Of a stretch of DNA of 64,000 nucleotides, positions 16,979 to 62,118 are shown piece after piece. This DNA is from a virus: IMG/VR virus record IMGVR_UViG_3300023110_001773, positions 64,001 through 128,000 of that record; one strand, written 5' to 3'. Every line of letters begins with the position of its first letter. Position 1 is the stretch's first letter. The position numbers were made by a program, and so were the translations under genes. The notes under the pieces were generated by a model that saw nothing but the letters and a program-made list of their open reading frames with translations, did not search any database and had not been told where the DNA came from.

Positions 16979-17724
16979 TATCTTAACTCACCAAATGGGT
17001 TGACTTCACTGAAATCAAGAATATCTTCTAAGTCTTGCAGTGTATCAAAATCTGTGTTGTCGGTATTGGCCAATGCTTTTTGTGCAGCAAATTCTTCCAA
17101 TATAAGAGTCCCATTATCTTCAAGTACCAATGCATTACCATCTTCAAGTAGAAACTGAAATGCCAACATATCGATTGACTGTTCATCTGCAACAACATCA
17201 AGATCGCCAATACCAGTGTCGATGATTTCAGAAGAGTACTCGAACAATTCGCATTGCAATTTGAACACATAAATCTTTCCTAATTGATAGAAAGGATTTT
17301 GAAATTCTACATATTTAATCTCAAAGATAGAACCAGTCTTTTCAAAATATAACAAGTCACCTTCTGCTGGTCTTGCGTCCAACTGAAAGTCTCCACCAGT
17401 AGTGACAACCATTTCTTCCCATCTTCTCTTTGACAGAACAAATGTTGCAGAATCTCTAATTTCTATACCAAATTTTGTAAATAAATCTCCCTCACCTTCA
17501 AACCCATCTACGTTTTCTAAATACATTTCTAGAGGATAGGCTTGTGTAAACTTAGACAATGCATCCTCATCAAGAATCAGGTCTCTGTTTACAATTGTTC
17601 TGGGAAGATAGTAAACATCGTGGCCGTAAATTTTGAGACTTTCAATAACTAAGTCTTCAACCAAACGTTGTTCGTTTGTTGTACCAGATGTGTTTCCAGA
17701 TTGGAAATAGAAGTTAGTAGCCAC
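16978..17724 (-). CDS. g14: Neck protein gp14
   Basis: EQ.LVEDL..ESLKIYG.DVYYLPR, KFGIEIRD, RP.EGDL.Y, FYQLGK, C-terminal FSE.NPFG; GTG start. Confidence 0.95.
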   Translation of the reverse strand: MATNFYFQSGNTSGTTNEQRLVEDLVIESLKIYGHDVYYLPRTIVNRDLILDEDALSKFTQAYPLEMYLENVDGFEGEGDLFTKFGIEIRDSATFVLSKRRWEEMVVTTGGDFQLDARPAEGDLLYFEKTGSIFEIKYVEFQNPFYQLGKIYVFKLQCELFEYSSEIIDTGIGDLDVVADEQSIDMLAFQFLLEDGNALVLEDNGTLILEEFAAQKALANTDNTDFDTLQDLEDILDFSEVNPFGELR

Positions 17725-20770: not shown

Positions 20771-22159
20771 TTAGTAAGAACCGCCATCAATAGCAAGTTC
20801 TACCCACTCTGGTGTCCCATTGTTAGAACGTAGGTAGTAACCATCAGCTCCAGCAGCAGTAGCCTGAATTGCACCAGTACCGTTACCAAAAAGAATACCG
20901 TTGCTGGTCAGTGTAGTAGCACCAGTACCACCATCGGCAACTGCGATTGCGGCAGACAGACCAGAAACAGTACCACTGGTCAAGTTGCCTTCGATGTTAG
21001 CAACCAATGTTGCAACTGCATAACCAGTTGAACCAGTGTCTACTGTAGTAGTAGGAGCAGACTGAGAGTCCTTAAACAGTTTCCACTTACCACTGTCAGA
21101 CGCATCACGGAACAGACCAGCGTACAGGTCTTGTGAACCAGATGTGTCATACAGACCGTAGAAACCAACGTCCACTGAGTCGGATGAATTGTTGCCAGAA
21201 GCCAACTTGAACAGCGGGTCAGTAACGTCCAAGTTTGTGGTGTTTACTGTGGTAGTTGTACCGTTTACAGTAAGGTTACCAGAAACCGTCAAGTTACCAC
21301 CAACAGTCGGGTTAGTTGCAAGACCAACCGTGACTTGGTTGTTAGAAACCGCAGTTGTTACTTCGTTCGCAGTACCAGCAAAGGTAAGAGTCTCACCACC
21401 GTTTACCGTATCAGTTGTACCACTGTCAGCAGCGACATCAAAAGACGTTGCAATCGCAGCGGTAGTTGCAGCAGTGATACGACCCTGTGCATCAACCGTG
21501 ATTACGGGAACAGCAGTTGTAGAACCGTAAGATGAGGCAGTAACACCAGAAGCAGGCATACTGATTTGACCGCCAGACTTAGAAAGAGTGGAGTCAACAC
21601 TAATTGCAGCCTGTGCTCTTGCGTCTGTGTAGTAGAGGTTAGTAGAACCTTCTGCTAGGTCATCGGTATCGTTGTCAGAAAAATCGTCAGCATCAGCAGC
21701 AGGAGCCCAACTTGTACCATTGTACTTCAGTACTTGACCAGAAGTCGCACCAGATGTTGAAACGTCACTAAGGTTGTCAATTGCAATGGTGATATCAGCA
21801 GAACCATCGAAAGACTGACCAGCGATGTTACGAGCAGTTTCCAAAACTGTTGCATCTGAAGCAGTACCATTTAGGTCAGCAGTAATAGTACCAGCAGAGA
21901 AGTTACCAGAACCATCTCTCTTGACAATCTTACTTGCAGTATTTGCATCAGTAGCACCATCTACTGCATCGGTATAGTACTTACCACCGATTGCATGAAT
22001 AACCTGTTGTGAACCAGAATCAAGAGACTCAATGTACAGTTTGGCGCCCGCACCATCTCCAGACTGATCTTCTGCATAAGCAAGTTCTCCCTGCACCAAA
22101 TCACTGGTGCCTGGAGCAGCGCTTCCACTCGATCTTTTGATTTGAATTGTTGTTGCCAT
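20771..22159 (-). CDS. Fibre protein (IQIKRS N-domain, T/G/A-rich modules, ends IDGGSY)
   Basis: MATTIQIKRS...GELAY, AIGGKY, VTASSYGS.T.VP.ITVDAQGRIT fibre repeats. Confidence 0.7.
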   Translation of the reverse strand: MATTIQIKRSSGSAAPGTSDLVQGELAYAEDQSGDGAGAKLYIESLDSGSQQVIHAIGGKYYTDAVDGATDANTASKIVKRDGSGNFSAGTITADLNGTASDATVLETARNIAGQSFDGSADITIAIDNLSDVSTSGATSGQVLKYNGTSWAPAADADDFSDNDTDDLAEGSTNLYYTDARAQAAISVDSTLSKSGGQISMPASGVTASSYGSTTAVPVITVDAQGRITAATTAAIATSFDVAADSGTTDTVNGGETLTFAGTANEVTTAVSNNQVTVGLATNPTVGGNLTVSGNLTVNGTTTTVNTTNLDVTDPLFKLASGNNSSDSVDVGFYGLYDTSGSQDLYAGLFRDASDSGKWKLFKDSQSAPTTTVDTGSTGYAVATLVANIEGNLTSGTVSGLSAAIAVADGGTGATTLTSNGILFGNGTGAIQATAAGADGYYLRSNNGTPEWVELAIDGGSY

Positions 22160-22201
22160 TTAGTTTCTCCCAATTAAGGTTTGTTTTTTGTTATCTAAAA
22201 T

Positions 22202-22432
22202 TTAAAAAGTTCCACCATCAATACTGTTTACTTGGACATCTGCCGAAGTCAGTGGAGCAGCTTCCCAATTTCCTGAAGCGGCATTATAAACAAGAGTCTC
22301 TCCATCCTGTGCGTCAGTAACATCAACACCAGCAAGACCTTCTATTCTAGTAGAAGTCTGAGTTTTAGAGTTAGTAGTAGTAGTAACTCTTTTTGTAGAT
22401 GTGGGCGTATTAACCCTTACTCTGACTACCAT
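22202..22432 (-). CDS. Small fibre adaptor ending IDGGTF
   Basis: 76 aa; L.GVD....DG.TLVYN...GNW motif. Confidence 0.6.
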   Translation of the reverse strand: MVVRVRVNTPTSTKRVTTTTNSKTQTSTRIEGLAGVDVTDAQDGETLVYNAASGNWEAAPLTSADVQVNSIDGGTF

Positions 22433-22758
22433 TACCTAGTTACCTCTGGGGTTACTGTAATAATGCCTTCTAATATCCTCAGTGTTTCCGAGGGGTCTTC
22501 AATTTCTAAATCATAAACATATCTACCAGCTTTCAAAGCACTTGTTTGTGCTGAAGTTAAACTCATTGTAACTTCTCCAGTCAAATCAACTTTGCTCGTT
22601 GTAAAAGCTGTATAAGTATTAGTATAATAACTCTTTCTAAGTTGAGCTCTAGGAGTATATAAAGACAAGTCTTTTGGACTCCCATCATCATTAGTTAGGT
22701 CAATCGACAAGGCAAAAGTTGTTCCCTGATCAATTACCAAATTTTGTACAGTAGCCAT
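22432..22758 (-). CDS. Conserved virion protein (BppU-N-like Ig fold)
   Basis: NL.IDQG.TF, AQLRKSY, LT..QT..L..GRYVYD.EI, RILEG.ITVTP.VTR. Confidence 0.65.
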   Translation of the reverse strand: MATVQNLVIDQGTTFALSIDLTNDDGSPKDLSLYTPRAQLRKSYYTNTYTAFTTSKVDLTGEVTMSLTSAQTSALKAGRYVYDLEIEDPSETLRILEGIITVTPEVTR

Positions 22759-22781
22759 TTATGATTCCATCTTTTACAAGT

Positions 22782-22789
22782 TATTTATA
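22782..22789 (-). promoter_or_regulatory. T4 late promoter (fibre/neck operon)
   Basis: Exact TATAAATA in the short divergent gap between 22758(-) and 22804(+). Confidence 0.8.
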
Positions 22790-22803
22790 AGAAAAAGAAA
22801 CTT

Positions 22804-23532
22804 ATGAAATCCGTGATAACATTGAAGTTTGGAGACAAATATAACTCCAACGATGTCAATTGTATTTATGATAATTCAAATATTTACAGACATGTCTGTA
22901 TCACAGACGATCCAGCAGGATTAAATCCCAACATAGAAATTATACCAATAGATTCTGATACCGATGGATGTTGGGAAAAAATAAAAATTTTCAAGAATGA
23001 TTGGGTTGGGGATTGCCTCTATCTAGACTTAGATGTTATAATACAGGGTAGTTTAGATAGGTTGTTTAATCACTGTTCAACACCGACAATATGTTATTGC
23101 TATTGGAAAAATAAAGATACTCATGAAACCAAGAATAGAAGATACCAACGAGAGATGCCATACCTTGGAAATGGACTATCAACTGATCCGTGGATGCAAA
23201 AATGGAAAGGTCTTTATAATTCCAGCGTAATGGTTTGGAATGGGAATGATGCAAGATACATTTACGATCATTTTGAAAAAAATGATGAATATTTCATGAC
23301 TAAATATTGTGGTGATGATAGATTTTTATATCATGAAAATATGTTTGACAATGTATTTCCAAAAGGATTAATCTATTCGTTGACGGGAGGCGTAGATTTA
23401 GACACGGACGTATCTCCAAGAGGGTATCAAATAAAACCAGACTATCCAATAGTTTTGTTAAACGGTAACGAACCAAAAGAAGAATTGAGAAAAAAATATT
23501 ATGATGCACTTTCTCTGCATGAAATGGGGTAA
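22804..23532 (+). CDS. Glycosyltransferase-like protein (GT-A fold, DxD)
   Basis: LKFGDKY...VN, CITDD, W.KI..F, LYLDLDVII, NSSVMVW, GDD.FL. Confidence 0.75.
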   Translation: MKSVITLKFGDKYNSNDVNCIYDNSNIYRHVCITDDPAGLNPNIEIIPIDSDTDGCWEKIKIFKNDWVGDCLYLDLDVIIQGSLDRLFNHCSTPTICYCYWKNKDTHETKNRRYQREMPYLGNGLSTDPWMQKWKGLYNSSVMVWNGNDARYIYDHFEKNDEYFMTKYCGDDRFLYHENMFDNVFPKGLIYSLTGGVDLDTDVSPRGYQIKPDYPIVLLNGNEPKEELRKKYYDALSLHEMG

Positions 23533-26224
23533 CAAATACTCGGCAGAATATGTAAACAATTTACGCAAGATGGTTCAACAGAACTATACGAAACGCCACA
23601 AGTTTATTTGTTATACCGATGACCCAGATGGAATAGACAAAAATATAACCATTAGATCAATTCCCAGAGTTGACCCACTTCATCCAGACTATTGGTTTGG
23701 CAAAGAGAACTGGTGTTGGGATAGGTCGAAATTCTTAGTATTAAACTCTCACCGATGGTTAAAAACCAAGGGGCCTTTTTGTTATTTAGATTTGGATGTT
23801 GTAATTCAAAACAACATCGATGAAATCTTTGATCTTTCATCTACTCCTCACATGTTGTATTCTCACTGGGAAGACCCCAGAGTACTAAAAGACAGACGTT
23901 TCACTGACATTAGAGGTAGTCTGTACAATTCTAGCGTGATGTTGTGGTGCAATGATGAGGGAGAAAAAATTTACAATGATGTTCTAAAACACAAGAACAC
24001 CGTATTTAAAACCTTTTGGAAGGGAACCGATAACTATTATCCATATCGTGAACACGATGTGGTTGGTGATAATTATTGGTCTTTCCTTCCGTCTGATTGG
24101 GTATACTCTTACAATAGAGGACAACAATATCCAGATAATGTGACAGAACATCTGTATAGAGAAACGGCAAAGTTTTGTATATTTGATAACCCAGTTGTAC
24201 CAAGCAAAGGTCAATTCATAAAACCACATGAAGTCAAAGACTATAACATTCTTATACACTGGCATGGGAAAACTGAGTTTGAAAAACTTTGGATGCCAAA
24301 GTTTCCAGAAAATTTCTTTACTAAAAATAAACACACAGAAAGAATTGATACTCTGATAAATGATGCAAACTCTTACGATCCTTTTGTAAAACAGATTGAA
24401 TCCAGACACCTAGAAACCATCAAAGAACTTGATGGAGACTTGATTTCAATGCACAAGAAATTCTTGGCAGACTTTCCCACCGATCCATTTTTGTTGGACG
24501 GAGATGAATCTTTATACTGGAACAAAGATGTAAATGGAATCTATGATTTCTATAAGGAAAGATATGTTTACAAGATGCACAAGGTTGTCTTTGATGTTCT
24601 TATTGATAAGTTCTACAAGGACTTACCAAAAATAAAAGAGGATTGGGAAAAGTACAACGACAAGTTTGATAGCATTAAGAACTGGTCTCAGTTTGATTCT
24701 ATGACGGATGACACACTAGAAAAAAACTACATGGATCAAAAGATCGTAAGCAGACTCAGACATATGTTGGATGAGAATGATCTGACATCTTTATCAAAAC
24801 AAATGATAGAGTACTTCCCAGAGTTAGAAACTCTGAAAGAGGACACCATTCCAAATATCAAGGAAAAGTTCCCAGAGTTAGAAAAAGAAATTTCAGACTT
24901 CACATTTATTAGAAGAATAGAATCTCATCACAGAAAAATAATTAAAGAGATATATGAAACTGGTGATATGATTTCTATGCACAAAAAGTTTTTGGCTGAT
25001 TTTCCAGAAGACAAGATATTGCAGAACGGAGATCAATCACTGTATTGGAATAAAAACGTTGATGGAATCTATGACTTCTATAAAGAAAGGTATATATCCA
25101 GACAACACAAAATTGTTTATGAAGAAGCAAAAGAATATGGGCCGGTGAGATACTTCTGGAACATCAGCTGGCTACAGTGTTTTGCACTGTATCGTAGACT
25201 GTGGCATAAAAATGAACTGCCAAAAATAAAAAAAGAGTTCATGAAAAATGTTAGAATGTATGGGATGCAAAGATTATTCTGGGATGCAGATGACGGTGAC
25301 ATCCAGAGTTTATACCGCAGATACTACATAGACAATCTAAAAGAGTTGTTCTACAAACAAGATTATGAAGCAGTATTTGAAAGACTGTATAACATCATGC
25401 CAAAGGATGAACTTTTGGGAATCTTGAAACAAGATAACATATCAGACGATACTCTAGTTAAGTATTTCCAAATGCATGGGGAACAGTACTCTGATATGTA
25501 TCGAGGACTATATGAAGATGGAGCCCCAGAAGGAGCCTTGGTTCAATTAAGTAGCAAAAGAAACGATACCAATGACCCGTACAATGATTTATTCTTAACA
25601 GAAAACGAACATACAATCTCATCTATCAGAAAGATTTTCGATAGGTATAGAGTCAATTGGGTTACGCTTATGTGTGAATTGTCAGACCCTACCAAATCAG
25701 AACACTTTGAGGAAATCTGTAAATACTTCCAAGACAATGGGATTACCGTTACGGTTCAAACATATGATCAAACGTTTATCAAACCAACTTGGGTTGATAA
25801 AATAGAATATATCGATCATCCGCAACAGACGGAAAACATTCCCATAGTACAAGAAACTATCGCCAGTGACATCCCCGTAAACTTGGAAACGTTAAAGATG
25901 TTCAAACAAAAGGACGAGGTTCGTAGACCAAAACCAAAGGCGAAGAAGTCCGAGGCAGTCTGGTGCGATGCAAGAAAGAGTGGATATTTTTATGTTAGTG
26001 CTGACAGTGGCGCATATCCGTGTGCCTATATAGCAAGAGATGTATTAGAAAGTAGATTATTACCCTATCATCCACTTGACTACACATACAATTCGCAGTA
26101 TAATAGTTTAAAGAATTTTACTGTTGGCGAGATAATTTATAGTAACGACTTTGAAAATGTTAGTCAGAGTTTAAAAAGAAACCCCCTGACTATTTGTAAT
26201 AAAAAATGCGGAGGGTGTAAGTGA
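23501..26224 (+). CDS. Multidomain protein: GT-A domain, duplicated helical repeat, degenerate radical-SAM/SPASM-like C-terminus
   Basis: CMKWGNKY, CYTDD, YLDLDVVI, NSSVM; 53-aa internal duplication; C-terminal WC...YVSAD..AYPC...IC.KKCGGC. Confidence 0.65.
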   Translation: MMHFLCMKWGNKYSAEYVNNLRKMVQQNYTKRHKFICYTDDPDGIDKNITIRSIPRVDPLHPDYWFGKENWCWDRSKFLVLNSHRWLKTKGPFCYLDLDVVIQNNIDEIFDLSSTPHMLYSHWEDPRVLKDRRFTDIRGSLYNSSVMLWCNDEGEKIYNDVLKHKNTVFKTFWKGTDNYYPYREHDVVGDNYWSFLPSDWVYSYNRGQQYPDNVTEHLYRETAKFCIFDNPVVPSKGQFIKPHEVKDYNILIHWHGKTEFEKLWMPKFPENFFTKNKHTERIDTLINDANSYDPFVKQIESRHLETIKELDGDLISMHKKFLADFPTDPFLLDGDESLYWNKDVNGIYDFYKERYVYKMHKVVFDVLIDKFYKDLPKIKEDWEKYNDKFDSIKNWSQFDSMTDDTLEKNYMDQKIVSRLRHMLDENDLTSLSKQMIEYFPELETLKEDTIPNIKEKFPELEKEISDFTFIRRIESHHRKIIKEIYETGDMISMHKKFLADFPEDKILQNGDQSLYWNKNVDGIYDFYKERYISRQHKIVYEEAKEYGPVRYFWNISWLQCFALYRRLWHKNELPKIKKEFMKNVRMYGMQRLFWDADDGDIQSLYRRYYIDNLKELFYKQDYEAVFERLYNIMPKDELLGILKQDNISDDTLVKYFQMHGEQYSDMYRGLYEDGAPEGALVQLSSKRNDTNDPYNDLFLTENEHTISSIRKIFDRYRVNWVTLMCELSDPTKSEHFEEICKYFQDNGITVTVQTYDQTFIKPTWVDKIEYIDHPQQTENIPIVQETIASDIPVNLETLKMFKQKDEVRRPKPKAKKSEAVWCDARKSGYFYVSADSGAYPCAYIARDVLESRLLPYHPLDYTYNSQYNSLKNFTVGEIIYSNDFENVSQSLKRNPLTICNKKCGGCK
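24434..25120 (+). repeat. In-frame 159-bp / 53-aa duplication (24434-24592 and 24962-25120)
   Basis: GDLISMHKKFLADFP..GDESLYWNKDVNGIYDFYKERY versus GDMISMHKKFLADFP..GDQSLYWNKNVDGIYDFYKERY. Confidence 0.9.
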
Positions 26225-27039
26225 GAGTAAATTATGTATGTTGCAAGTGGGGAACAAAGTATGGCCCGCACTTCGTCAACAGATTAAAAGAAATGGCGAA
26301 AAGAAACACGCCAGAAGAATTTGAATTTTATTTTTATTGTTACACGGACAATTCAGATGGATTTGACTCTGACATCAATGTTATACCATTTCCTGATATT
26401 CCTAATATTCATCCTAAGTATTGGTTTGGGACTGAAGATTTTAAGTATGGTATGGCACGTTGCTGGGATCGTCCTAAAACTTTTGTTTTCAATACTCATA
26501 ATTTTGCTGACGATAAACCTACTGGGCGCTTTGTTTTTTTTGATCTTGATGTTATTATCCAAGGTGATCTTACACCTGTCCTAACATACAACATGGAAAG
26601 ACCCACTAAGATGAAGTCTTGGTGGCAAGACCCAAGACCGATGACCACACGGCAATTTAAATTGGCCCACGGTGCATATACGAATGGTTCTTGTCAAGTG
26701 TGGTCAGATGATCAGTGTGAGTGTATCTGGAATGATGTATTAGAGAATCAAGAAAAAATTTGGTTCACATACACCGATGGAACCGACAACTATCACTCTT
26801 GGAAATGGGGTAGGTACGGCGAAGACTTGTGGGATCACTTCCCTTCTTGGATGGCATACTCATATAACCGTGGTAGGTCATGGGATGAAGATGATTTGAA
26901 CGTTGGAATCTACAGACCAAACTGTATCATATGTGTGTTCAATGTTGATCTTTTGCCTTTTGAAGACAAAAGTAGAGGTCACACAAAACAAGATGAACTC
27001 GCAGACCCTCAACTACTAAAACATTGGACTGGTGAATGA
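26221..27039 (+). CDS. Glycosyltransferase-like protein (GT-A, DxD)
   Basis: CCKWGTKY...FVNRL, CYTD, FFDLDVII, NGSCQVW; paralogous to the 23501 N-domain (HP.YWFG, CWDR.K). Confidence 0.78.
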   Translation: MRVNYVCCKWGTKYGPHFVNRLKEMAKRNTPEEFEFYFYCYTDNSDGFDSDINVIPFPDIPNIHPKYWFGTEDFKYGMARCWDRPKTFVFNTHNFADDKPTGRFVFFDLDVIIQGDLTPVLTYNMERPTKMKSWWQDPRPMTTRQFKLAHGAYTNGSCQVWSDDQCECIWNDVLENQEKIWFTYTDGTDNYHSWKWGRYGEDLWDHFPSWMAYSYNRGRSWDEDDLNVGIYRPNCIICVFNVDLLPFEDKSRGHTKQDELADPQLLKHWTGE

Positions 27040-27710
27040 ATATTTACACTGTTAAATGGGGCAACAAATATATTGCTTCTCATGTAAATCAACTCTATGA
27101 GAGTTGTAAGCAACATATAAGTTGCGACTTTGACTTCTATTGTCTAACAGAAGATTCAAAAGACCTAGACCCCGCTATAAAAGTATTGTCATTTCCAGGC
27201 GGAAACAAACTAGAAAAGTGGTGGAATAAGATGTATCTGTTTGATGATACTATTGTTACACAAAAAGGCGAAAAGATGTTCTTTGACTTGGACGTAATCA
27301 TCCAAAAGAACATCGATGATATTGTAAACTATGATCCAGAAGATTGTCTGTGTTTTGTAAAAACATGGTGGCACGATCTAGAAACACAGTACAGGGACAC
27401 TAGACACATTCCACACAAGTACACTGACTTGAACTCATCTGTGTTGCGCTGGAATGACAGTCTAAATACTAGAGAACTGATCGAATATTTTAACAAGTAT
27501 AAGAAACAAATACTGTGGTACTATCGAGGCCTTGACAACTTCTTCTACAACAGAAGGGTGGTAAAAACAAAAATGTTTCCACTAGGATGGGTGTACAGTT
27601 TTAATCAGGGATATGTTTTTCCGCATGACATAGAAAGACATACATACAGAGAACTACCATATATTTGTATATTTGACTCAATGGGAAAAAGTGAAGATGT
27701 TAAATTCTAA
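27036..27710 (+). CDS. Glycosyltransferase-like protein (GT-A, DxD)
   Basis: VKWGNKY, CLTED, WWNKM.LF, FFDLDVII, NSSVLRW. Confidence 0.78.
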   Translation: MNIYTVKWGNKYIASHVNQLYESCKQHISCDFDFYCLTEDSKDLDPAIKVLSFPGGNKLEKWWNKMYLFDDTIVTQKGEKMFFDLDVIIQKNIDDIVNYDPEDCLCFVKTWWHDLETQYRDTRHIPHKYTDLNSSVLRWNDSLNTRELIEYFNKYKKQILWYYRGLDNFFYNRRVVKTKMFPLGWVYSFNQGYVFPHDIERHTYRELPYICIFDSMGKSEDVKF

Positions 27711-28380
27711 TTTTATCAACAACTATAAAAACTGGGGCGAAGCTCTACATATTATCGAAAAGAAAATGCCACATAAACTGGCAGACTTCAGACAATCTTT
27801 GTCGGAAAATAATATGGAAGCTAGTGTCTGGTGTGTAGAAGAACTAAAAAAATATCTTGAGGAGTATTACACAAAAACTGGCAACCTAAGAATTCTAATT
27901 CTAAACTCTTGGTTGGGGATTCCTATGGTTCCTCTTCTCTGTGAAAATCTAGACGTATCACAGATTCACATGGTTGACTTGGATGAAGAGTCAATCGAAC
28001 TGTCAAAAATTTTTCATAAACACTACGCCCAAGAAAAATTTGTCAACATCCGTCACTGGAATCTTGATGTACCATTTGAATTTGAAAACTTAAACAAGAT
28101 TGAAGTTGATGTGGTAATTTGTATTCATACTGAACAGATGTATCCTCTGCAAGAACTCAATGGAAAAAATGCACAAGCGGTTTATGCAGTACAGAATTCA
28201 AATGTGGTAGAAGAAATGTACGGTATCAACTGTGTCGGATCAATTGAAGAGCTGAAAGAACAGATGGGAATATCCGAAACTGGATACGAAGGAACAAAAC
28301 AACAGACATACTTCTCTTGGGAAGGAAAGAAAGAATATGATCGTTACATGATCATCGGGCAGAGAGAGGGTTTCTTTTAA
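27697..28380 (+). CDS. Class I SAM-dependent methyltransferase-like protein (motif I degenerate)
   Basis: RILILNSWLG, HMVDLDEESI, DVVICIHTEQM, QNSN, INCV; likely start at 27697. Confidence 0.55.
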   Translation: MLNSNFINNYKNWGEALHIIEKKMPHKLADFRQSLSENNMEASVWCVEELKKYLEEYYTKTGNLRILILNSWLGIPMVPLLCENLDVSQIHMVDLDEESIELSKIFHKHYAQEKFVNIRHWNLDVPFEFENLNKIEVDVVICIHTEQMYPLQELNGKNAQAVYAVQNSNVVEEMYGINCVGSIEELKEQMGISETGYEGTKQQTYFSWEGKKEYDRYMIIGQREGFF

Positions 28381-28982
28381 CCCTCGATGTCCTCTACCAT
28401 CATTTCCCACATAGTTTTGTCGGGAATAACAAACCCTATTGTTTGTCTTGGACTATTTGATCCAGCACAGTGCCAATAGGGTTCTTCCTCTTTACCACCA
28501 TAATATCCAACCTTTGCAGACCAACCAGGCTGGTCATTGATCGTTTTTATTTTACCATCTTCTAGGTGTTTAAAAAATCCACCCCCGTCACTATGAGACA
28601 GAAGTATGTTATAGCCTGGACAATCCCAGTTATTGTGCCAAGACATAAATCCACCTACGGGATAATAAACGTGGACTGCGGTAAACTTTGCACCAAGATA
28701 TGCTGATAGATTTTTGCTGAAGTCTAAAGATTTTTCTCTGGCTTCTTTTGGAACCTTTGCAGTTAGGTGAAAGTCACATACCTTAGCAAACTCTGGCGGG
28801 CCTTTATGTTTGTTTCCCTTTGACATAACTTCATTAAGATATTCTTGAGAGCAATAATATTCCATATCATTGTCTCCAATCCGTCTCTCATCAAAAGATA
28901 GATCAAAGTTTTTTTTGTTGAACCAAACAATGTAGTCTTCAAGAATCTTATTTAATTCTTGATTGATGGTTATGGTTTGCAT
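28377..28982 (-). CDS. 2OG-Fe(II) oxygenase-like (DSBH) protein
   Basis: YP.GGFMSWHNN...YWHCA....PR.TIGF (Hx[D/N]...H...R arrangement). Confidence 0.6.
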   Translation of the reverse strand: MQTITINQELNKILEDYIVWFNKKNFDLSFDERRIGDNDMEYYCSQEYLNEVMSKGNKHKGPPEFAKVCDFHLTAKVPKEAREKSLDFSKNLSAYLGAKFTAVHVYYPVGGFMSWHNNWDCPGYNILLSHSDGGGFFKHLEDGKIKTINDQPGWSAKVGYYGGKEEEPYWHCAGSNSPRQTIGFVIPDKTMWEMMVEDIEG

Positions 28983-29667
28983 TTAAAGTTACTCTTCCCA
29001 ATGTATAATGAGTGATAACAACATCTTGTCCCACAAGTTCTTCTGGTCTTTGACCCATACAAAAGTTCCATCTGGCATCTGGTTCTGGGAACTCACCAAC
29101 TTTTATTTTATCTTTGTGGTCTGTTTTATTTAGTAGATACCACATAGTAAAGGTATCCCAAGGTTTCACCATGTGCGTGTATGGACTAGGATCATAAGAT
29201 GGTTTTATTTGTTCGCAATAATACTCATACCAATCATCCATGAGGTCAACTGTTTTTGCGTTCTTTTTATAAACAAAAACACCACAGTGATAAACCATTT
29301 CTTCCGTATCATTTAGTTTTGTTATTTTAGCATTGTATGGACGATTTTTGGTAAAGATAATATCGTTGTTGCCTATAAAACCAAAGACATCTTTGATATC
29401 TTCATGTTGAATGTAAGTATCACAATCAATATACATGGTGATATCATATGGAGTTCTTGACAAAGCCCACAACTTTGTTCTAACATGATTGGGGATGTCA
29501 GTTATAATATGATCAAAGATTTCGTGGTCTTCTTCTTCAATCCATTCTTCTAGTGCGAATAAAGTTATTCTTGCTTCTGGATTAAAGTCGAGGAGCGAAA
29601 GAGCTGACTCTTTGGCGGCGAGATAATATTCTTTTCTCACCGTTGCAACGTATAGATATCCGTTCAT
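28948..29667 (-). CDS. Glycosyltransferase-like protein (GT8-like, DCD)
   Basis: GYLYVA, SA.SL, RTKLWAL..TPYD.TMYIDCD, HCGVF.Y, WN, HY. Confidence 0.75.
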   Translation of the reverse strand: MNGYLYVATVRKEYYLAAKESALSLLDFNPEARITLFALEEWIEEEDHEIFDHIITDIPNHVRTKLWALSRTPYDITMYIDCDTYIQHEDIKDVFGFIGNNDIIFTKNRPYNAKITKLNDTEEMVYHCGVFVYKKNAKTVDLMDDWYEYYCEQIKPSYDPSPYTHMVKPWDTFTMWYLLNKTDHKDKIKVGEFPEPDARWNFCMGQRPEELVGQDVVITHYTLGRVTLNANHNHQSRIK

Positions 29668-30101
29668 TCAGAATTAGAGATAGCTTCTTGTAATAAAAGT
29701 GTTGCGTAAGCCTGAACCTCAACAACGGTTTTAGCTTTTCTAAGAAGTTTTTTTAATTCTTTGTTGGGAGATTCTTTGATTAGATCAATCTCAAATGCTT
29801 CAAGTTTCATCTCAAAGAGAGTTTCTTGTTTGATCCGATTGATGTGAACTTCTCTAGCTTCTTCAGCCTTCTTTCGATCTTCATCTAAATTTTCTTCATA
29901 AAGTTTGGTATTCTCATCAAGAACTTCTTCACCAAACTCTTCCATGATATTATCAAAATCTTTATTGACAAGACCCTCTTCTGGGTTGCCAGCATTAATA
30001 TTACATTGATGATATCTTTCTCCGACAAGAATTTCACACCATACTCGGCGAGTTTCTTTATCGACCCATCTAGGATTTTTGTACTTGGGGAGGTCTGACA
30101 T
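29664..30101 (-). CDS. Hypothetical protein (possible fibre chaperone/adaptor)
   Basis: NPRW...RVWCEI N-terminus and helical C-terminus; coupled to the downstream GT gene; GAGG before the ATG at 30101. Confidence 0.5.
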   Translation of the reverse strand: MSDLPKYKNPRWVDKETRRVWCEILVGERYHQCNINAGNPEEGLVNKDFDNIMEEFGEEVLDENTKLYEENLDEDRKKAEEAREVHINRIKQETLFEMKLEAFEIDLIKESPNKELKKLLRKAKTVVEVQAYATLLLQEAISNSE

Positions 30102-30118
30102 AATATTCCTCATAATGT

Positions 30119-30154
30119 AAAAAAATAGTGAGTGTCACCACAACACTCACTATT
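30119..30154 (-). terminator. Hairpin plus U-tract between the Tyr-Gly repeat gene and the modification genes
   Basis: aatagtgagtgt-N7-acactcactatt followed by a T-run on the minus strand. Confidence 0.6.
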
Positions 30155-30169
30155 ATATATGTCAATTGA

Positions 30170-31144
30170 TTAAGCGGTTCTCAAGAAAAGTTGTTTTGTT
30201 TCTTGTGTAGAAGATGAAGACTGAATCGTAGCACCAGCATAGTAACCAGTATATGTACCAGAATAACTACCAGCATAAGACCCGTTTAAATATCCAGAGA
30301 AGAATCTGTCATAGTAACCAGTATATGTACCAGTATAACCACCCGCATAATTTACATTTGTAATATCTTTGAGGTTGTCTGTCATTGTTCCACCCATTTG
30401 AACCCATGTGCCTGGGTCTGTGGGCGAACCAGTCTGAACAAGATATGTTCCTACACCAGAAGAGATAATTCTGTTTCTAAAACTATTATCCAGCGTTTCT
30501 ACATCAGCAACTGACATTTCTGTGACATTACCAAAGTCATCAGATTTTAACAGGAGATTACTATCAGTACCAGCATTAGTGGTAACACCAGTTTTTTGCC
30601 ACAAATAATATGAGACAGTTGTGCCATCTGTCTGAGTATCAGTGATAGTATATCTAGCAGTCCACGTTCCTCCAGCCGGAGAAGATGTGTCAATTTTATA
30701 CTGACCTACAGTATTAGCATCTTCTGATACCATCGCATTAATAACAATATCTAAAATTTCTGTGTCAATTTCTCCATCACTACTTTCTTCTACTCCAGAC
30801 CCATTCCATCTCAAAGGTCTGGTAGGATTTTCTGATAAAACAGTATTCACCTGACCGAAAGTGTTTGTAGTAGTGCTAATAGCGCCACTTGCTGGATGAG
30901 CTCCAACCGATTCCTGTCTCACTCTATCCGAGAAAGAACCAATGTTAGTAACTCCAGCAGAAAGACTTCCAGTAGTTACTACGAGTTCGGCAGTACCAGT
31001 TCCATCAGTATCAGTTGCAAACTTTGATGTAATAACACCAGCAATTTGGTTTGCAATTTCGGTATTAGTAAGCTCACGAAATCCTTGCAAACCATCTGCG
31101 GCAGCTGGATATGAACCTGCTTTTAGTGTTATTGGGCCAGCCAT
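30170..31144 (-). CDS. Virion/fibre protein with C-terminal [Y/F]-x-G-x repeats
   Basis: S/T/G-rich; tail NYAGGYTGTYTGYYDRFFSGYLNGSYAGSYSGTYTGYYAG; exact 24-bp direct repeat at 30238-30261 and 30310-30333. Confidence 0.6.
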   Translation of the reverse strand: MAGPITLKAGSYPAAADGLQGFRELTNTEIANQIAGVITSKFATDTDGTGTAELVVTTGSLSAGVTNIGSFSDRVRQESVGAHPASGAISTTTNTFGQVNTVLSENPTRPLRWNGSGVEESSDGEIDTEILDIVINAMVSEDANTVGQYKIDTSSPAGGTWTARYTITDTQTDGTTVSYYLWQKTGVTTNAGTDSNLLLKSDDFGNVTEMSVADVETLDNSFRNRIISSGVGTYLVQTGSPTDPGTWVQMGGTMTDNLKDITNVNYAGGYTGTYTGYYDRFFSGYLNGSYAGSYSGTYTGYYAGATIQSSSSTQETKQLFLRTA

Positions 31145-31155
31145 CTATAAACTCC

Positions 31156-32001
31156 TTAGTTAATCAATGTACCACTAGAGTTGAACACAGCGAGTCCACG
31201 ATGTCTGATCCAATCTGTAGTATCTTTGCATGTCAAAGTAAATGTTGTATGTGCGGGCAAAGTTACCGCAACGTTAGAACTTCCGCCATTGATCGTATCA
31301 GATGTATTCGGATACAATTTACAATCGGTTGAAGTTGTGTTAGCAACAACAATAGTAAGTCCAGCTGCAGCAGCAGGAAGTTTTACACCCTGAGAAGAAG
31401 AACCAACAGTAGTAATTGCGTTGAAAGTTTCTGTGAGTGCAGTAGCATCTCCTTGGGAAGTACCAGCAGAAGAAACAGAAGCAGTTACACCAACCTTCAA
31501 GTCTCCAAGAAGTGAAGCAGTACCATTGATAGTAAAGTCTTCCACGTTGTTACCACCAGAACCTACCTGTTGCCAAGCACCAGTTCCAGTACCAACAAAC
31601 TCAGAACCATTGTCTGTCACCAGTTCAACGGCTGCGTTTGCGGCGCCACCATCAATGGTCTCAGTAGAAGTGGGATAAACTTTGATAGTAGCACCACTAG
31701 TATTGTAGATATTGATGATCAAACCAGCAGCAGCTGAGGGAAGTACAACACCTTGATTCGCAGAAGCGGTTTCGACAATATTATAAGTTTTTGTGATTGC
31801 AGTTGCAGTTCCCTGAGTAGTACCAGCAGCTGTAACAGAAGCAGCAATGCCAAATGTTACATTTCCAGTAGCACTTAGAGTACCAAAAGAAGCGTTATCA
31901 CCAGACTCATATTTGTCGTTGTTTAGGTTGGTAAAGTTTGTATCCACTTCGGTGTTAGTAAGTGGAGACCCTTTTGCTGACCTTAAAGTAATCGTAGCCA
32001 T
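31156..32001 (-). CDS. Fibre protein with two tandem ~95-aa domains
   Basis: N-terminal ITLR..KGSPLT..EVD.NF; the motif ASV..AGT.QG.ATA...QGV.LP.AAAG...YP...TI.GG occurs twice. Confidence 0.65.
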   Translation of the reverse strand: MATITLRSAKGSPLTNTEVDTNFTNLNNDKYESGDNASFGTLSATGNVTFGIAASVTAAGTTQGTATAITKTYNIVETASANQGVVLPSAAAGLIINIYNTSGATIKVYPTSTETIDGGAANAAVELVTDNGSEFVGTGTGAWQQVGSGGNNVEDFTINGTASLLGDLKVGVTASVSSAGTSQGDATALTETFNAITTVGSSSQGVKLPAAAAGLTIVVANTTSTDCKLYPNTSDTINGGSSNVAVTLPAHTTFTLTCKDTTDWIRHRGLAVFNSSGTLIN

Positions 32002-32009
32002 TTTAGTCC

Positions 32010-32258
32010 CTATCTGTCATTTTTGTTGTAAGAATTTAAAAACGTGCTCAAGAGGTTTTTCATTTCTTTGAGTTCTTCTTTCAAACTATTTATATCATTT
32101 GACATTTCGGAAATTTGTTTTTTTCCTCTAATGTCAGAAGCTATTTTTCTTTTATATCGTTGAAGACCAGCGTGATCCACAGATAAAAGAGCACCAGAAT
32201 GAGGGTCTCTGGTATACTGTTCCGAAGATACTTCGTTATCCATCATTGGTCTATTCAT
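32010..32258 (-). CDS. Small conserved protein downstream of the large baseplate protein
   Basis: RDPHSGALL...I.SLK.EL.EMK.LL; likely start at 32258, 5 nt after TATAAATA (32264-32271). Confidence 0.6.
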   Translation of the reverse strand: MNRPMMDNEVSSEQYTRDPHSGALLSVDHAGLQRYKRKIASDIRGKKQISEMSNDINSLKEELKEMKNLLSTFLNSYNKNDR

Positions 32259-32275
32259 TGACTTATTTATACTCA

Positions 32276-35200
32276 TTACACTGCACCAGCCTGACAAGCA
32301 ATCATTCTAAGTTGTTTTGCTTTTGGCACTAAAGAAGTATTTTCTGCACAGAAAACGATCTTACACTGGAAATATTTGAATTGAACAAATTCTGCTGTAT
32401 CTATTGTTGCAGTCATTGTAGCCTGTGTACCACGATATTGCCAAGTAATAGTACCATCGGTAGCAGTACCACTGGTATGAGTAGGTTCGGAACCAGACAC
32501 AGCAGCAGTTATACCTCCAACAATTGCTTCATATGTGTTTCCACCGTAAGCAACCAATTGACCAGTTTGATACGTCTCAGCAAGTTCATGTTCGTATCCA
32601 ACTTGAATAGTAGGAGCAACGCCATTATATCCAGAGCCTGGGTTTACAATTTCCACTTCATTTATTGCACCAGAACTCAAAGATTTTATTGCTACATCAC
32701 CACCCCCAGATATGAAAAGAGGAACCTCTTGAATAGAAGCATAACCACTGCCGCTGTTAGTAATAGTAACAGCAGAAATCCTATCAGTGTTATAAGAAAA
32801 CTTTCCTTCAGCATTTAAAGCAGAACTGGGAAGTTTGTAATCCAAATCAATAAATGAAGTTTTTGCAGCAGGAGCTCCATTTGGATTTGCTTCATCATAT
32901 TCCATTTCAATCCAATTTAATTCTCTCCTAATATCAGAATCATCATGTGGGTGCAATCCTCTAAAGTATACTTTTGCACTAGACCCAGGCGGAGTAAACA
33001 GAGAAACAGAAAGTTTTATGTCGTCCGCTTCCTGACCATCAGCGAGTCTAACTATCTTACTGATAAATCTGGATTTAGCCTGACCACCCAAAGGAGTTTC
33101 TTCATCAGTAAAAGTATTATTAATAACGTTTTCTCGTACAATAGCAGAAAATCTAGAAGGATTTAGAATTGGAGATACATTTGGATTCGTATTAGTCAGA
33201 ACAACATGATGTCTATAACTCTTCTTAGACCAAATATCAGTACCAGTAAATCCTAATTCTTCACTCAAAGAGTAAATAGCTGCTTCTCTGGAAGTGTCGG
33301 TAAATAGAGTTGGTGTCATGTTTACGAATTCATTTCCACGAGTATTCGTACCAGTGGAGTTTGTGACGGCTCTGCCAATAGCTATATCGGTTTCAATAAA
33401 CTCTTTTACAGTCATTGATGTTCTAGATGTATTAATAATCTTTTTGAGTCCAGCCTGTTGAATATACATGGACTTCCTATTCACTTGATCACACCACCAA
33501 AGTTCATCTGCTCTTGGCAACAAAGTGGTGTCTCCGTCAACAAGAATATCATCTACATCAAACAAGTTGGTAGATTCTGGTAAAATGAAATCGTATCTAT
33601 TTTTTTGATTATCAATCTTTTTCATTCTCATTGATTTGATTGAAAGATTTATTTCAAATCCAGCTCCGCCTCCACTAGTTGTGGATTGTATGAAAGTATT
33701 GTTTGATCCATCGGTAGAACCAAATGTATAGGGTTTCGCCTCAAATGAGTCTTTTGATCCATCGTGATACTGTATCGGTTTTACAGCAGTAACAACACCA
33801 CCACCAGTACCCAGACCACTGTCAATCTCGGTTACCTCAAATATGATACCCTTTGGACATCTGTTTCTAGATGTATCAAGAGTTATGGTATCTCCGACTG
33901 CGTAATTGACACCACCTTCATTGATAGTGTGGTTGAAACTATACCAAGTTCCAGGCCTAGATGGGTCTGGTTTTCCTCCAGTGAATTCTTCACCGATCAC
34001 AAATTCTGCGTGTTCGTTGACAACTTCTACCGTACCAGTACCAGTGGGGAAAGTATTAGCATACATAACAAACTTGATGTCTTCACCTTGGTGTGGTGTC
34101 CACGTTCTGTTGTTAGAAGAAGTAAACAACATACCACTGTATGTTTCATCAGCGGTAACTCTATCCGATTGAGTACCAATCTTATTTTCGCCTAACTTAG
34201 ATACCCAAATATTGTAATTCGGGTTGTTGTTTTGTGGCAACAGTACAAATGCATACTCTTCTGTTGGGTCTAATACAACTGGTCTACCATTGATGTTACT
34301 GTTTTGACCAGTGACTCCCACGGCGTAAGTTTGATCTCCAAAATAGAATGTAGTAGCGTATTGCGCCCTAAAATCAAAATTGGTTGCATTACCACCAGAA
34401 ATATCTGGTGTAGTTTTTACTGCCTGATGCGACAAAGTACATGTACCTAAAATTTCTTTGGTCGGATATCCGTTCAGACACTTTCTTATTTCCATTGTAA
34501 TACCGCCAATGGTGGGCTGAACAACACCAGTACCAGTACCAGCCTGAGTTGCGGTAAATATTGTACCCACATCACTACTAGATGCTCCAACATCAGCCCA
34601 ATCGGTGTTTCCAGATTCTACAATTTTATATGATCTGCCAATTTTGAGTTCTGTAGCCGATACGTCAGAAAACAGAAGAGTTTCTGGCAAAGTTACTCCA
34701 TCTTTTTCGCCTGGTCTTTCTCTAAAGAATACTTTTACCTGAGACAAGAAAACTGGCGTAGGAGAATTCTCAACAGTGAAAGATTGAGCTATTGGATCAC
34801 CAAACTGCCTAGGTGGATGGAAAATAAATTGCGGTTGAGTAACATCGATGTTAGCTTCTAGGTCGTCAATAGATACATTTATTTCTGCATTGGTGTTTTT
34901 CACATCAGTAACAACAGTACCTACAGTAGAAGTTCCACCATCTACGGCTGTAGTGCCATACTCTACTGTATAAATTTCAGCAGTCAAACTAACTTCTTGA
35001 GTTGCTTGATGCAAACCAAAAGCGGAGTATTGATTTTCTGCTTGAGTGGTAATAAAGTTATCTCTGTTTTGAGGATCGTCTACTACCCAGATTCTTCTGG
35101 TTCCCACTGGGAATCTATTGCCAGGCAAATCAAGTATGAAGGCAGCATCTCCGCCTTCATTCGTAATAATATCTGTTCTGATAGTTGGTGGATATATACA

Positions 35201-61855: not shown

Positions 61856-62118
61856 ATTGGCAGTTTAGATGTCTTCTTTGCTTTTAACAAATTGAGGTTT
61901 TGAGCCTCGGCAGTAATCTTTTCTTTTAAAGACGGTGTAAGAAGTTTCTTAATACTTTCAATTTCTACTTCATTGCGAACACAAAAATCTGTTAGTACGT
62001 CAATATAATTTTGGCCCATACTAGCCTTTCTTTCAATATGTTGAGAAAACTCAACAGCACTAGAAAACTGTTGATTGCTTATTAGAAACTCATCGGTTTT
62101 TTTAACTTCTTCAATCAT
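61852..62118 (-). CDS. g33: Late transcription coactivator gp33
   Basis: FS..IE, YID....C..N..E.E...KL....LKEKI..EA..LN.L......LPI. Confidence 0.9.
   Translation of the reverse strand: MIEEVKKTDEFLISNQQFSSAVEFSQHIERKASMGQNYIDVLTDFCVRNEVEIESIKKLLTPSLKEKITAEAQNLNLLKAKKTSKLPI

Follow-up and report, generated by a model that had tools for sequence, protein, structure and literature searches.

Why should a T4-like phage carry a block of conserved enzyme-like genes in the middle of its fibre genes? The question is raised by a 64,000-nucleotide stretch of viral DNA (positions 64,001 to 128,000 of IMG/VR record IMGVR_UViG_3300023110_001773), referred to here as the window, which forms the middle part of a 165,637-bp record rated complete by CheckV. 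An island of two convergent gene arms occupies positions 22804-30113 of the window, and PHROG matches revealed fibre genes on either side of it, as an initial annotation made from the sequence had described. Five plus-strand genes (22804-28380) face three minus-strand genes (28377-30113), and the arms overlap in a TTAA at 28377-28380, the plus stop TAA lying at 28378-28380 and the minus stop at 28377-28379. These eight open reading frames (ORFs), their two blocks and the overlap had all been annotated before and were borne out by an ORF check. The plus arm (Arm B) comprises genes for four glycosyltransferase (GT) paralogues of GT-A type, GTa1 to GTa4, and for a methyltransferase-like (MTase-like) protein. 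The minus arm (Arm A) comprises genes for a helical protein, hel149, a GT8-like transferase and an oxygenase-like protein, cup201, and lies directly behind the gene of fib324, a fibre-like protein that bears a tail of (Y/F)xGx repeats (Table 1). Our best reading, which we hold tentatively, is that the island encodes one pathway that glycosylates this tail.

Under this proposal the island would be a conserved set of enzymes acting in the cytoplasm, organised in two arms. Arm A would serve to mature fib324, the product of the gene immediately upstream. First, the glycogenin-like enzyme would move a sugar from a nucleotide sugar to a Tyr, Ser or Thr hydroxyl within the repeat. Second, cup201, a putative oxygenase with a His/Asn/His site and a retained Arg predicted to bind 2-oxoglutarate (2OG), would oxidise a residue of the same protein or of the glycan, and third, hel149 would hold or present the repeat. 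Arm B would extend and cap the glycan, with GTa3, GTa4 and the MTase-like protein making a conserved inner part and GTa1 and GTa2 a variable outer part. We infer the acceptor, the donors, the order of the steps and the convergence of both arms on one product, and set these beside folds, catalytic-type residues, paralogy, gene order and conservation that were observed. In its complete form, in which a wide marine T4-like clade has its silk-like (YxGx)n fibre tail, variable in length, O-glycosylated in the host cytoplasm by a glycogenin-like primer, oxidised by the His/Asn/His enzyme, extended by the four paralogues and methylated, the scheme is doubtful. The initial annotation had likewise postulated a single multi-step virion pathway; the enzyme identities behind it hold at the level of fold or motif, while the pathway goes beyond them and is burdened by the HxN motif of the oxygenase and a degenerate motif in the MTase-like protein.

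The link of Arm A to one repeat-tailed protein carries the argument. IMG/VR was scanned three times, with the GT8-like protein, cup201 and an alignment of fib324 as queries; relative loci bear L-numbers, L001 being Phage C48C1 (Kyanoviridae). The fib324 alignment recovered 267 relatives. The initial annotation had suggested surveying whether the cluster co-occurs with a repeat-tailed fibre gene, and for the minus-arm trio this held almost without exception. In the fib324 family, 72 distinct loci offered 2.3 kb or more of downstream sequence, and in 71 of them hel149, the GT8-like gene and cup201 stood directly after the tail protein gene. At the 72nd locus the fetched DNA runs out behind hel149, which makes 71 of 71 loci with enough flank. 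The link persists across lineages only 33-47% identical, and hel149 keeps its place between the fibre gene and the GT8-like gene both in the IMG/VR loci and in C48C1, where its homologue shares 38% identity (E 2e-15). For the plus arm the co-occurrence was less complete, with convergent MTase-like, GTa4 and GTa3 genes in 43 of 47 loci having at least 5.2 kb downstream. The full order (VrlC-like gene, small ORF, fib281, fib324, hel149, GT8-like gene, cup201, inverted arm, LtfC-like gene, more fibres) is kept where cup201 is only 41-47% identical to that of the window, and a defined sub-cluster is collinear in about 80 distinct loci.

C48C1, L049 and L051 carry the minus-arm trio without the plus arm. 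In C48C1 the same type of tail and cap ends a 3348-residue giant protein, and an LtfC-like gene directly follows the cup201 homologue. The convergent arm of L051 (4411-6897) consists of a genuine radical S-adenosylmethionine (SAM)/SPASM enzyme and two genes without assigned family; that of L049 likewise starts with a radical SAM/SPASM enzyme, and the variant arm of L100 (6598-12206) includes a carbamoyltransferase gene beside three radical SAM genes. Enzymes of the radical SAM/SPASM class are typically peptide maturases, and their occurrence in the arms of L049 and L051 is counted in favour of tail modification. A role on the tail protein is the best reading of Arm A, because its invariable adjacency survives both fusion of the tail to another protein and loss of Arm B, because the structural kin of its enzymes include protein modifiers, and because their catalytic-type residues are invariant. 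Arm B is tentatively placed in the pathway by co-occurrence and shared chemistry.

The junction of the arms is an insertion hot spot, and the island is plastic only there. In relatives it holds genes for DNA ligase, ThyX, a PNKP-type HAD phosphatase, HNH, PTOX/alternative oxidase, 2OG-FeII_Oxy_5, phosphomannomutase and DUF6071 (L011:9279-10465, L022:8702-9385, L077:7292-8425, L083:10767-11480, L096:2930-4106). A random island of auxiliary metabolic genes was considered and rejected for the core genes, as their order is kept across deep lineages. We regard it as quite improbable that the two arms are unrelated modules, Arm A serving fibre maturation or assembly and Arm B being an independent early islet with another target (host glycans, a small molecule or another phage protein). 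Such a split would suit the three loci with Arm A alone, the direct succession of cup201 and LtfC-like genes in C48C1, the latter gene flanking Arm B in the window, and the junction genes from DNA ligase to 2OG-FeII_Oxy_5 in the list above. It also suits the family sizes, as the GTa family comprises 4622 representative clusters at 50% identity (E up to 0.001), including the N-terminus of P1 PmgQ, whereas the family of the GT8-like protein is much smaller, with 148 members. Two unrelated modules sit poorly with the collinearity of Arm B across deep lineages and with the GT-A transferase chemistry common to both arms.

Table 1. Features of the island and its surroundings in the window.
Feature	Position	Strand	Basis
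GTa1, 242-residue GT-A paralogue	22804-23532	plus	paralogue alignment; phrog_1962 'glycosyltransferase', 1e-15
GTa2, 907-residue fusion	23501-26224	plus	N-terminus aligns with paralogues
GTa3, 272-residue GT-A enzyme, modelled shape GT8/GT24-like	26221-27039	plus	AlphaFold2 model, alignment
GTa4, 224-residue GT-A paralogue	27036-27710	plus	paralogue alignment; phrog_1962, 2e-9
Rossmann methyltransferase-like protein, 235-residue ORF	open from TTG 27673, probable start ATG 27697, end 28380	plus	Pfam matches below cut-off, Atlas neighbours
cup201, 201-residue prolyl-hydroxylase-like double-stranded beta-helix protein	28377-28982	minus	AlphaFold2 model
glycogenin-like GT8-type transferase (putative), 239 residues	28948-29667	minus	profile match, invariant residues
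hel149, 149-residue acidic helical protein	29664-30113	minus	conserved, no family
terminator-like hairpin, 14-bp stem and T run, between fib324 and hel149	30124-30154	minus	sequence scan
fib324, fibre-like protein with (Y/F)xGx tail	30170-31144	minus	translation, family alignment
fib281, fibre-like protein heading late unit	31156-32001	minus	translation; conserved upstream of fib324
late promoter motif TATAAATA upstream of fib281	32087-32094	minus	motif scan
TATAAATA upstream of LtfC-like gene, in 45-nt divergent spacer shared with GTa1	22782-22789	minus	kept in most relatives
sigma-70-like site TTGACT-17-TATAAT, 116 nt upstream of GTa3, inside GTa2 end	26076-26104	plus	score 11/12
LtfC-like gene beside plus arm	22432-22758	minus	Pfam LtfC-like, E 0.0018, below cut-off
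VrlC-like gene, DUF4815 protein	32276-39556
neck protein gp14, T4 type	16978-17724
gp15	15977-16978
NAD-dependent nucleotide-sugar epimerase/dehydratase, outside island	62111-62971	minus	Pfam Epimerase 3e-40, GDP_Man_Dehyd 2e-31

The presumed acceptor, fib324, consists of an N-terminal duplicated module, the (Y/F)xGx repeat tail and a conserved C-terminal cap, which ends L-(W/F)-x-(R/K)-T-A in the family alignment and RTA in the window. From its context, fib324 is probably a virion protein. The Tyr/Ser/Thr-rich tail described in the initial annotation is real (its composition is Tyr/Gly/Ser/Thr) and becomes much longer in relatives. In the window it spans 40 residues (about 266-305, nt 30230-30349) and contains no Pro, and some relatives' tails hold one to three. 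Far-lineage tails reach 120-208 residues, with 27-43 Y-x-G-x units and a composition of about 25% Tyr, 23% Gly and about 30% Ser plus Thr. Over all relatives the length ranges from 40 to about 700 residues. Such variation in length, put at 40-fold, is what a spacer that carries decorations should show. An extreme growth of this low-complexity sequence is seen at locus L170 (4995-7871 and 7873-10128), which encodes two tandem fib324 paralogues of 958 and 751 residues, made up for the most part of hundreds of residues of (Y/F)-S/A-G-x repeats. The aromatic position is mostly Phe in the tails of L049 and L051. Judged by its sequence divergence, fib324 lacks the hypervariability of a receptor-binding tip. 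Its median identity in far lineages is 45%, within the 44-47% that it shares with cup201 and the GT8-like protein, compared with 28% for the VrlC-like protein.

The AlphaFold2 model of cup201 has a predicted local distance difference test score (pLDDT) of 91.5 and revealed a double-stranded beta-helix, which confirms the fold of the 2OG-Fe(II)-like oxygenase annotated earlier, while the metal motif of that class, H-x-D, is replaced by H-x-N. The top Foldseek matches were PHD2 and P4H at E 2e-5. VIA gave Z scores of 11.2 to PiuC (root-mean-square deviation (rmsd) 2.8, 143 aligned), 10.0-10.3 to PHD2 and P4H, about 10 to Tpa1, and 9.2 to the structure 5c5t of the chlorovirus PBCV-1 prolyl hydroxylase vCPH; TET/JBP enzymes were absent among the structure matches listed. 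A PDB sequence-profile search with cup201 returned nothing significant. Residues H116-N-N118, H171 and R179 are invariant across lineages. As read from the secondary structure of the model alone, H116-N-N118 falls at the end of strand II and H171 at the start of strand VII. R179 lies eight residues past H171, within the 8-10 residues at which 2OG oxygenases carry the basic residue that binds the C5 carboxylate of 2OG, and it probably has this role in cup201. HxN stands in place of HxD/E in all 74 distinct homologues, so that the HxD/E...H facial triad is lacking and cup201 falls outside the canonical HxD family. AspH is described as an active protein hydroxylase with two His ligands only and no carboxylate ligand (PMC13168262); therefore, HxN in cup201 does not imply inactivity. 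In Phage C48C1, cup201 matches occur at three places, one of which (L001:7893-8567) lies in the replication module between DnaB-like helicase and NifU-like genes; the family is thus not confined to fibre regions.

The GT8-like protein had been annotated from its DCD motif. This motif stood up well: K65, D81-C-D83, H127-C-G129 and H220 are invariant over deep divergence. The database matches stayed below threshold. A PDB profile search returned glycogenin-1 only, at an E of 0.17 that is below significance, with the K...DxD block aligned by HMMER, and Pfam GT8 matched at E 0.021 (14.8 bits against a cut-off of 24.3). Its Atlas neighbours carry Nucleotid_trans or Glyco_transf_8 on just 20-51% of members. 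GT8 enzymes carry a third metal ligand, a His, in the C-terminal region, and H220 may be this ligand. On sequence grounds the protein thus has the K...DxD and His pattern of CAZy GT8/glycogenin-like enzymes without a significant match to them. The third protein of the arm, hel149, has no family match in Pfam, NCBIfam or PHROG; the label 'chaperone-like' given to it earlier was a guess, and what can be said is that the ORF is conserved.

Might the GT8-like and oxygenase-like proteins have lost catalysis and been co-opted as chaperones of the fibre or as minor components of the virion? Chaperones are often encoded immediately behind fibre genes, the carboxylate ligand is missing in every oxygenase homologue, and none of the eight island proteins scored above the cut-off in Pfam or NCBIfam. 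We nevertheless rate non-catalytic use as highly improbable. The invariant residues K65, D81, D83 and H220 of the one protein and H116, H171 and R179 of the other are those needed for catalysis or cofactor binding only, and a hairpin, plus a separate promoter in relatives, sets these genes apart from the structural transcript.

In Arm B, the four paralogous GT-A proteins of the initial annotation were recovered with pairwise identities of 25-32% and invariant K-G-K-Y, C-T, D-L-D-V and N-S motifs. A whole-genome search found these four copies at E 1e-80 to 1e-94 and none further in the phage's genome. The AlphaFold2 model of GTa3 (78-sequence alignment, pLDDT 91) adopts the GT-A (Rossmann-like alpha/beta/alpha) fold. 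Its structure matches were LgtC (Z 17.1, rmsd 3.5, 219 aligned), WbbM (16.9), GlyE (16.7), UGGT (16.3) and glycogenin (15.9), with LARGE1 also among them; the nearest solved shapes to the model are retaining enzymes of the GT8 and GT24 kind. K86, D108 and D110, a DxD with its preceding Lys, are invariant in the 78 sequences. No GTa paralogue matched PF01501 (Glyco_transf_8), any other Pfam family or NCBIfam, the only match being phrog_1962, and PDB sequence-profile searches with the family gave nothing significant. By the model, the GTa paralogues are GT8-like in shape and not GT8 members. A common family of GTa and the GT8-like protein is not claimed, since a profile-profile match was found only around the DxD block, at 7% probability. 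The best viral matches of GTa3 are uncultured-phage entries named 'glycosyltransferase' and 'family 8'.

The paralogues differ in conservation. GTa3 is the most conserved protein of the region (median identity 84% in near and 77% in far lineages), followed by values of 78% and 56% for GTa4, and GTa1 is the most variable of the four, with 42-67% identity to its orthologues in near relatives. GTa3 holds 77% identity in lineages whose fibre proteins are down to 28-45%, so that its substrate does not follow shifts in host range. GTa2 joins an N-terminal GT-A domain to a duplicated helical module of about 73 residues (63% identity, E 2e-32) and a Cys-rich, SPASM-like C-terminus, and its homologues run from 251 to 912 residues, some being split into two genes. 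The C-terminus lacks CxxxCxxC and had no SPASM match at E up to 1, and does not qualify as radical SAM/SPASM; weak SPASM matches (E 0.003-0.01) come from homologous GTa2 fusions only. Kinship of this C-terminus with the radical SAM/SPASM enzyme of L051 was considered and dropped, as no similarity was detectable.

For the MTase-like gene the signals were weak. Spermine_synth (E 0.007, 16.3 against 22.9 bits) and Methyltransf_12 (E 0.087, 14 against 30 bits) both stayed below the Pfam cut-off, the nearest named Atlas clusters carry Methyltransf_31, the Atlas record beginning at residue 9, and a PDB profile search returned nothing useful. Motif I, read from the sequence, is LNSWLG and not the GxGxG of class I SAM-dependent enzymes. 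The protein has a mean column identity of 78%. The label given in the initial annotation thus keeps sub-threshold support from Pfam and Atlas. Taken together, the nearest solved kin of the island proteins include enzymes that act on proteins: glycogenin, GlyE, UGGT and the Skp1 enzyme Gat1 for the transferases, and PHD2, bacterial P4H, Tpa1 and the chlorovirus prolyl hydroxylase for cup201.

The fold of the transferases bears on DNA as a target, that is, hypermodification of phage bases by the transferases and the oxygenase. Hydroxylase and transferase pairs modify DNA in other phages, and a candidate cassette with a DruA-like gene is present at the window start. T4-type glucosylation combines GT-B transferases with a dCMP hydroxymethylase. 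The island enzymes have a GT-A/GT8-like fold, and PF00303, covering thymidylate synthase and dCMP hydroxymethylase, was absent from the complete genome in a search in which control genomes scored. In addition, the island is located in the fibre region and cup201 is nearest to protein hydroxylases. The GT-A fold, the lack of a dCMP-hydroxymethylase homologue in the complete genome and the lack of TET/JBP-like enzymes among the matches listed make DNA modification very improbable, as the initial annotation had also judged.

Expression signals separate the enzyme genes from the fibre genes. The T4-type late motif TATAAATA has 15 matches in the window against 4 expected, 14 of them on the minus (structural) strand. 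Sigma-70-like sites scoring at least 11/12 number 10 in the window against 3.3 in shuffles, and are thus about 3-fold commoner. Of 32 distinct relatives, 17 have the site upstream of GTa3 with its spacing to the gene unchanged; it is a putative promoter, whose conservation may partly reflect coding constraint. Several sites precede early-type genes elsewhere in the window (1482, 2128, 2912, 61174 and 63891). The spacer between fib324 and hel149 (30114-30169 in the window) holds a sigma-70 site of 11 or 12/12 in 21 of 31 distinct relatives (TTGACA, 17-18 nt, TATAAT or a one-base variant). In these spacers (for example L003:7499-7554, L014 and L033) the -10 hexamer lies in the loop of a hairpin whose stem sequences differ by locus; in the window the -10 hexamer is degenerate and the stem longer than in relatives. 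The same DNA may both terminate the upstream transcript and start the next.

Salt-marsh metatranscriptomes from 2018 included four libraries with contigs at least 99% identical to the window (22400-32300), and the phage, or a near twin, is present in those four samples. The contigs are long over the fibre genes, ending at 30155-30161, next to the hairpin, in three runs and at 30099 in the fourth, and short and thin over the enzyme genes. Being assembled, the contigs allow neither a ranking of genes by depth nor a claim on transcript ends, and they amount to a weak hint. Taken as a whole, these observations point to modest production of the enzymes from host-type promoters; they do not point to a place of the enzymes in the late fibre transcript. 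Late co-transcription with the fibre genes was accordingly rejected as evidence, the terminator-like hairpin and the sigma-70 consensus site of the relatives separating the units.

Several points weigh against glycosylation of the fibre tail. The HxN motif may mean that cup201 is an inactive oxygenase, and the methyltransferase assignment is weak. Tyr as a universal acceptor is weakened by the Phe-rich tails of L049 and L051, which indicate that the periodic aromatic residue is structural. The promoter-like sites found for both arms are of sigma-70 type and not late, and the plus strand from 22000 to 32500 holds no TATAAATA, leaving the plus arm without a T4-type late promoter motif. Phage structural gene order is inherited, and adjacency may reflect descent and not function; moreover, since unrelated genes sit at the arm junction, a place among fibre genes is no argument for a role in the virion. 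GT8-shaped enzymes belong just as typically to lipopolysaccharide (LPS)-core synthesis, LgtC being the top match of the GTa3 model. Finally, GT8 genes of this region have been read as modifiers of the host O-chain (PMC7029224).

The main rival explanation, possible if rather unlikely, is remodelling of the host envelope. The soluble GT8-like enzymes, the oxygenase and the MTase-like protein would act early in infection at the inner face of the host membrane and alter the core of LPS or lipooligosaccharide (LOS), the O-chain or the capsule, so that superinfection is blocked or progeny are kept from sticking to infected cells and debris. The linkage to fibres would then couple receptor binding with receptor masking, as in T5, in which llp adjoins the gene of pb5. 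The island sits between the VrlC-like gene and gp14 with fibres and GT genes inside, which is the definition of the pelagimyophage-type host recognition cluster, where GT8 enzymes are read as O-chain modifiers. Its top structural match is the LOS galactosyltransferase LgtC, followed by WbbM; its promoter-like sites are of sigma-70 type, with no late motif for Arm B, and the RNA contigs are thin over the enzymes compared with the fibre genes, a weak point. Relatives carry phosphomannomutase at the junction and carbamoyltransferase in a variant arm, and 2OG oxygenases that modify lipid A-Kdo, LpxO and KdoO, are known. Envelope remodelling leaves unexplained why Arm A stands behind one repeat-tailed protein at every locus with enough flank, even on a giant protein. 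It also fits poorly with fib324 being less divergent than the VrlC-like protein, with the constancy of GTa3 across lineages with strongly diverged fibres, and with the closeness of cup201 to protein hydroxylases. Pfam and NCBIfam scans gave no membrane or export family matches, no transmembrane or signal-peptide prediction having been made.

The remaining genome fits a marine T4-like myophage. The identification as T4-like in the initial annotation is upheld by genes for the gp23 capsid, scaffold, portal, sheath, terminase, baseplate wedge and hub, gp32, gp59, UvsW, gp15 and the gp14 neck. For the gp23 capsid protein, identity is about 70% with the counterparts in Methylophilales phage Melnitz and the Pelagibacter myophages, compared with about 63% for cyanomyophages. 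No psbA was found in the complete 165.6-kb genome, so the host is probably a marine heterotroph; a cyanophage host was rejected on this ground, though some relatives carry PTOX. The nucleotide-sugar epimerase noted earlier outside the island was confirmed and is a possible supplier of donors for it. The LtfC-like gene, with a domain of the T5 L-shaped tail-fibre protein, shows 81% identity in far lineages, unusually high for the region. A B12-binding radical SAM protein of 501 residues (58559-60064) adjoins gp32, and a Druantia DruA-like domain lies in the early region (1-888, Pfam E 3e-8).

Little of the island has counterparts among deposited phages. A megablast of the 10-kb region against phage genomes gave no match. 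In tblastn searches of 50,697 phage records, GTa3 and fib324 had no match, the GT8-like protein and cup201 matched Phage C48C1 only, and GTa1 matched only the N-terminus of P1/P7 PmgQ/HdmD; no deposited record with the whole island was found. GTa1, GTa3, the GT8-like protein, cup201 and fib324 were all without a tblastn match in HTVC008M, Mosig and Melnitz, and our literature search found no paper on the island. That marine T4-like phages have GT8 genes interspersed with their fibre genes is already published. The conserved two-arm cluster, its strict pairing with a (Y/F)xGx protein, the HxN oxygenase variant and the size of the GTa family seem to be new. They offer new material: an extensive GT-A family so far unannotated, a 2OG-oxygenase fold in which HxN is invariant, and a fibre motif of low complexity. 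If it is the fibre that receives the sugar, abundant marine myophages would bear glycan coats of their own making on the organs with which they recognise hosts, with consequences for adsorption, resistance to proteases, adherence to marine particles and the reading of virion proteomics. If the enzymes act on the host envelope, the island would be a conserved means by which uncultured phages avoid superinfection or decoys.

How does the island compare with known systems? The closest in place is the host recognition cluster of pelagimyophages, which runs from VrlC to gp14 and holds many glycosyltransferases, chiefly GT8, and for which modification of the host O-chain to avoid co-infection was proposed (Zaragoza-Solas et al. 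2020; PMC7029224). Both clusters occupy the same place in marine T4-like phages, with fibres intermixed and GT8 the commonest type in the published one; that cluster was described as non-syntenic (PMC7029224), whereas the sub-cluster found here is collinear at its many loci and tied to one repeat-tailed protein. Work on cyanophages reads such genes as modifiers of the cell surface or of DNA (PMC12801897). The LPS/LOS core GT8 enzymes (LgtC, WaaJ-type) are, like GTa3, soluble GT-A proteins with a DxD and include its best structural match, and differ from it in sequence, with 9-10% identity to their structures, no Pfam GT8 match and no conserved His seen in the GTa C-terminal consensus. The GT8-like protein shares its K...DxD block with glycogenin at the non-significant E value given above, glycogenin being an enzyme that modifies itself.

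Glycogenin glucosylates a Tyr hydroxyl. In mycobacteriophages, O-glycosylation of virions was reportedly shown by experiment by Freeman and colleagues in 2023, with capsid and tail-tube proteins as acceptors. The likeness would be that phage-encoded glycosyltransferases decorate the phage's own structural proteins; those phages are siphoviruses of an actinobacterial host, and their acceptors are not a (Y/F)xGx fibre tail. We know of no report of a hydroxylase-like partner in that system, nor of a bacteriophage that combines GT-A transferases, a methyltransferase and a 2OG hydroxylase.

Such combinations do occur in eukaryotes and their viruses. The chlorovirus PBCV-1 encodes A064R, with GT and methyltransferase domains, and a viral prolyl 4-hydroxylase, and L230 of mimivirus is a lysyl hydroxylase and glucosyltransferase that acts on collagen-like fibres. 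These giant viruses resemble the proposed pathway in host-independent, cytoplasmic glycosylation of virion proteins by GT-A, methyltransferase and 2OG hydroxylase functions, with a repeat-containing fibre as the acceptor in mimivirus; they differ in their eukaryotic hosts, unrelated sequences and collagen or capsid acceptors. In Dictyostelium and Toxoplasma, Skp1 is modified by the prolyl hydroxylase PhyA and soluble glycosyltransferases including the glycogenin-like Gat1 (bioRxiv 10.1101/764241). Similar to our proposal, a cytoplasmic PHD-type hydroxylase acts there with a series of soluble GT-A enzymes to assemble a short linear glycan on a single protein, and Gat1 and the Dictyostelium PHD both appear among the structure or profile matches of the island proteins. 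Skp1 is eukaryotic and has a single Pro acceptor, whereas the oxygenase of the window has HxN and its repeat tail lacks Pro. If the proposal is true, this would be the first pathway for virion glycosylation known from T4-like phages that infect Gram-negative hosts, and a bacterial-virus counterpart of the Skp1 and giant-virus systems.

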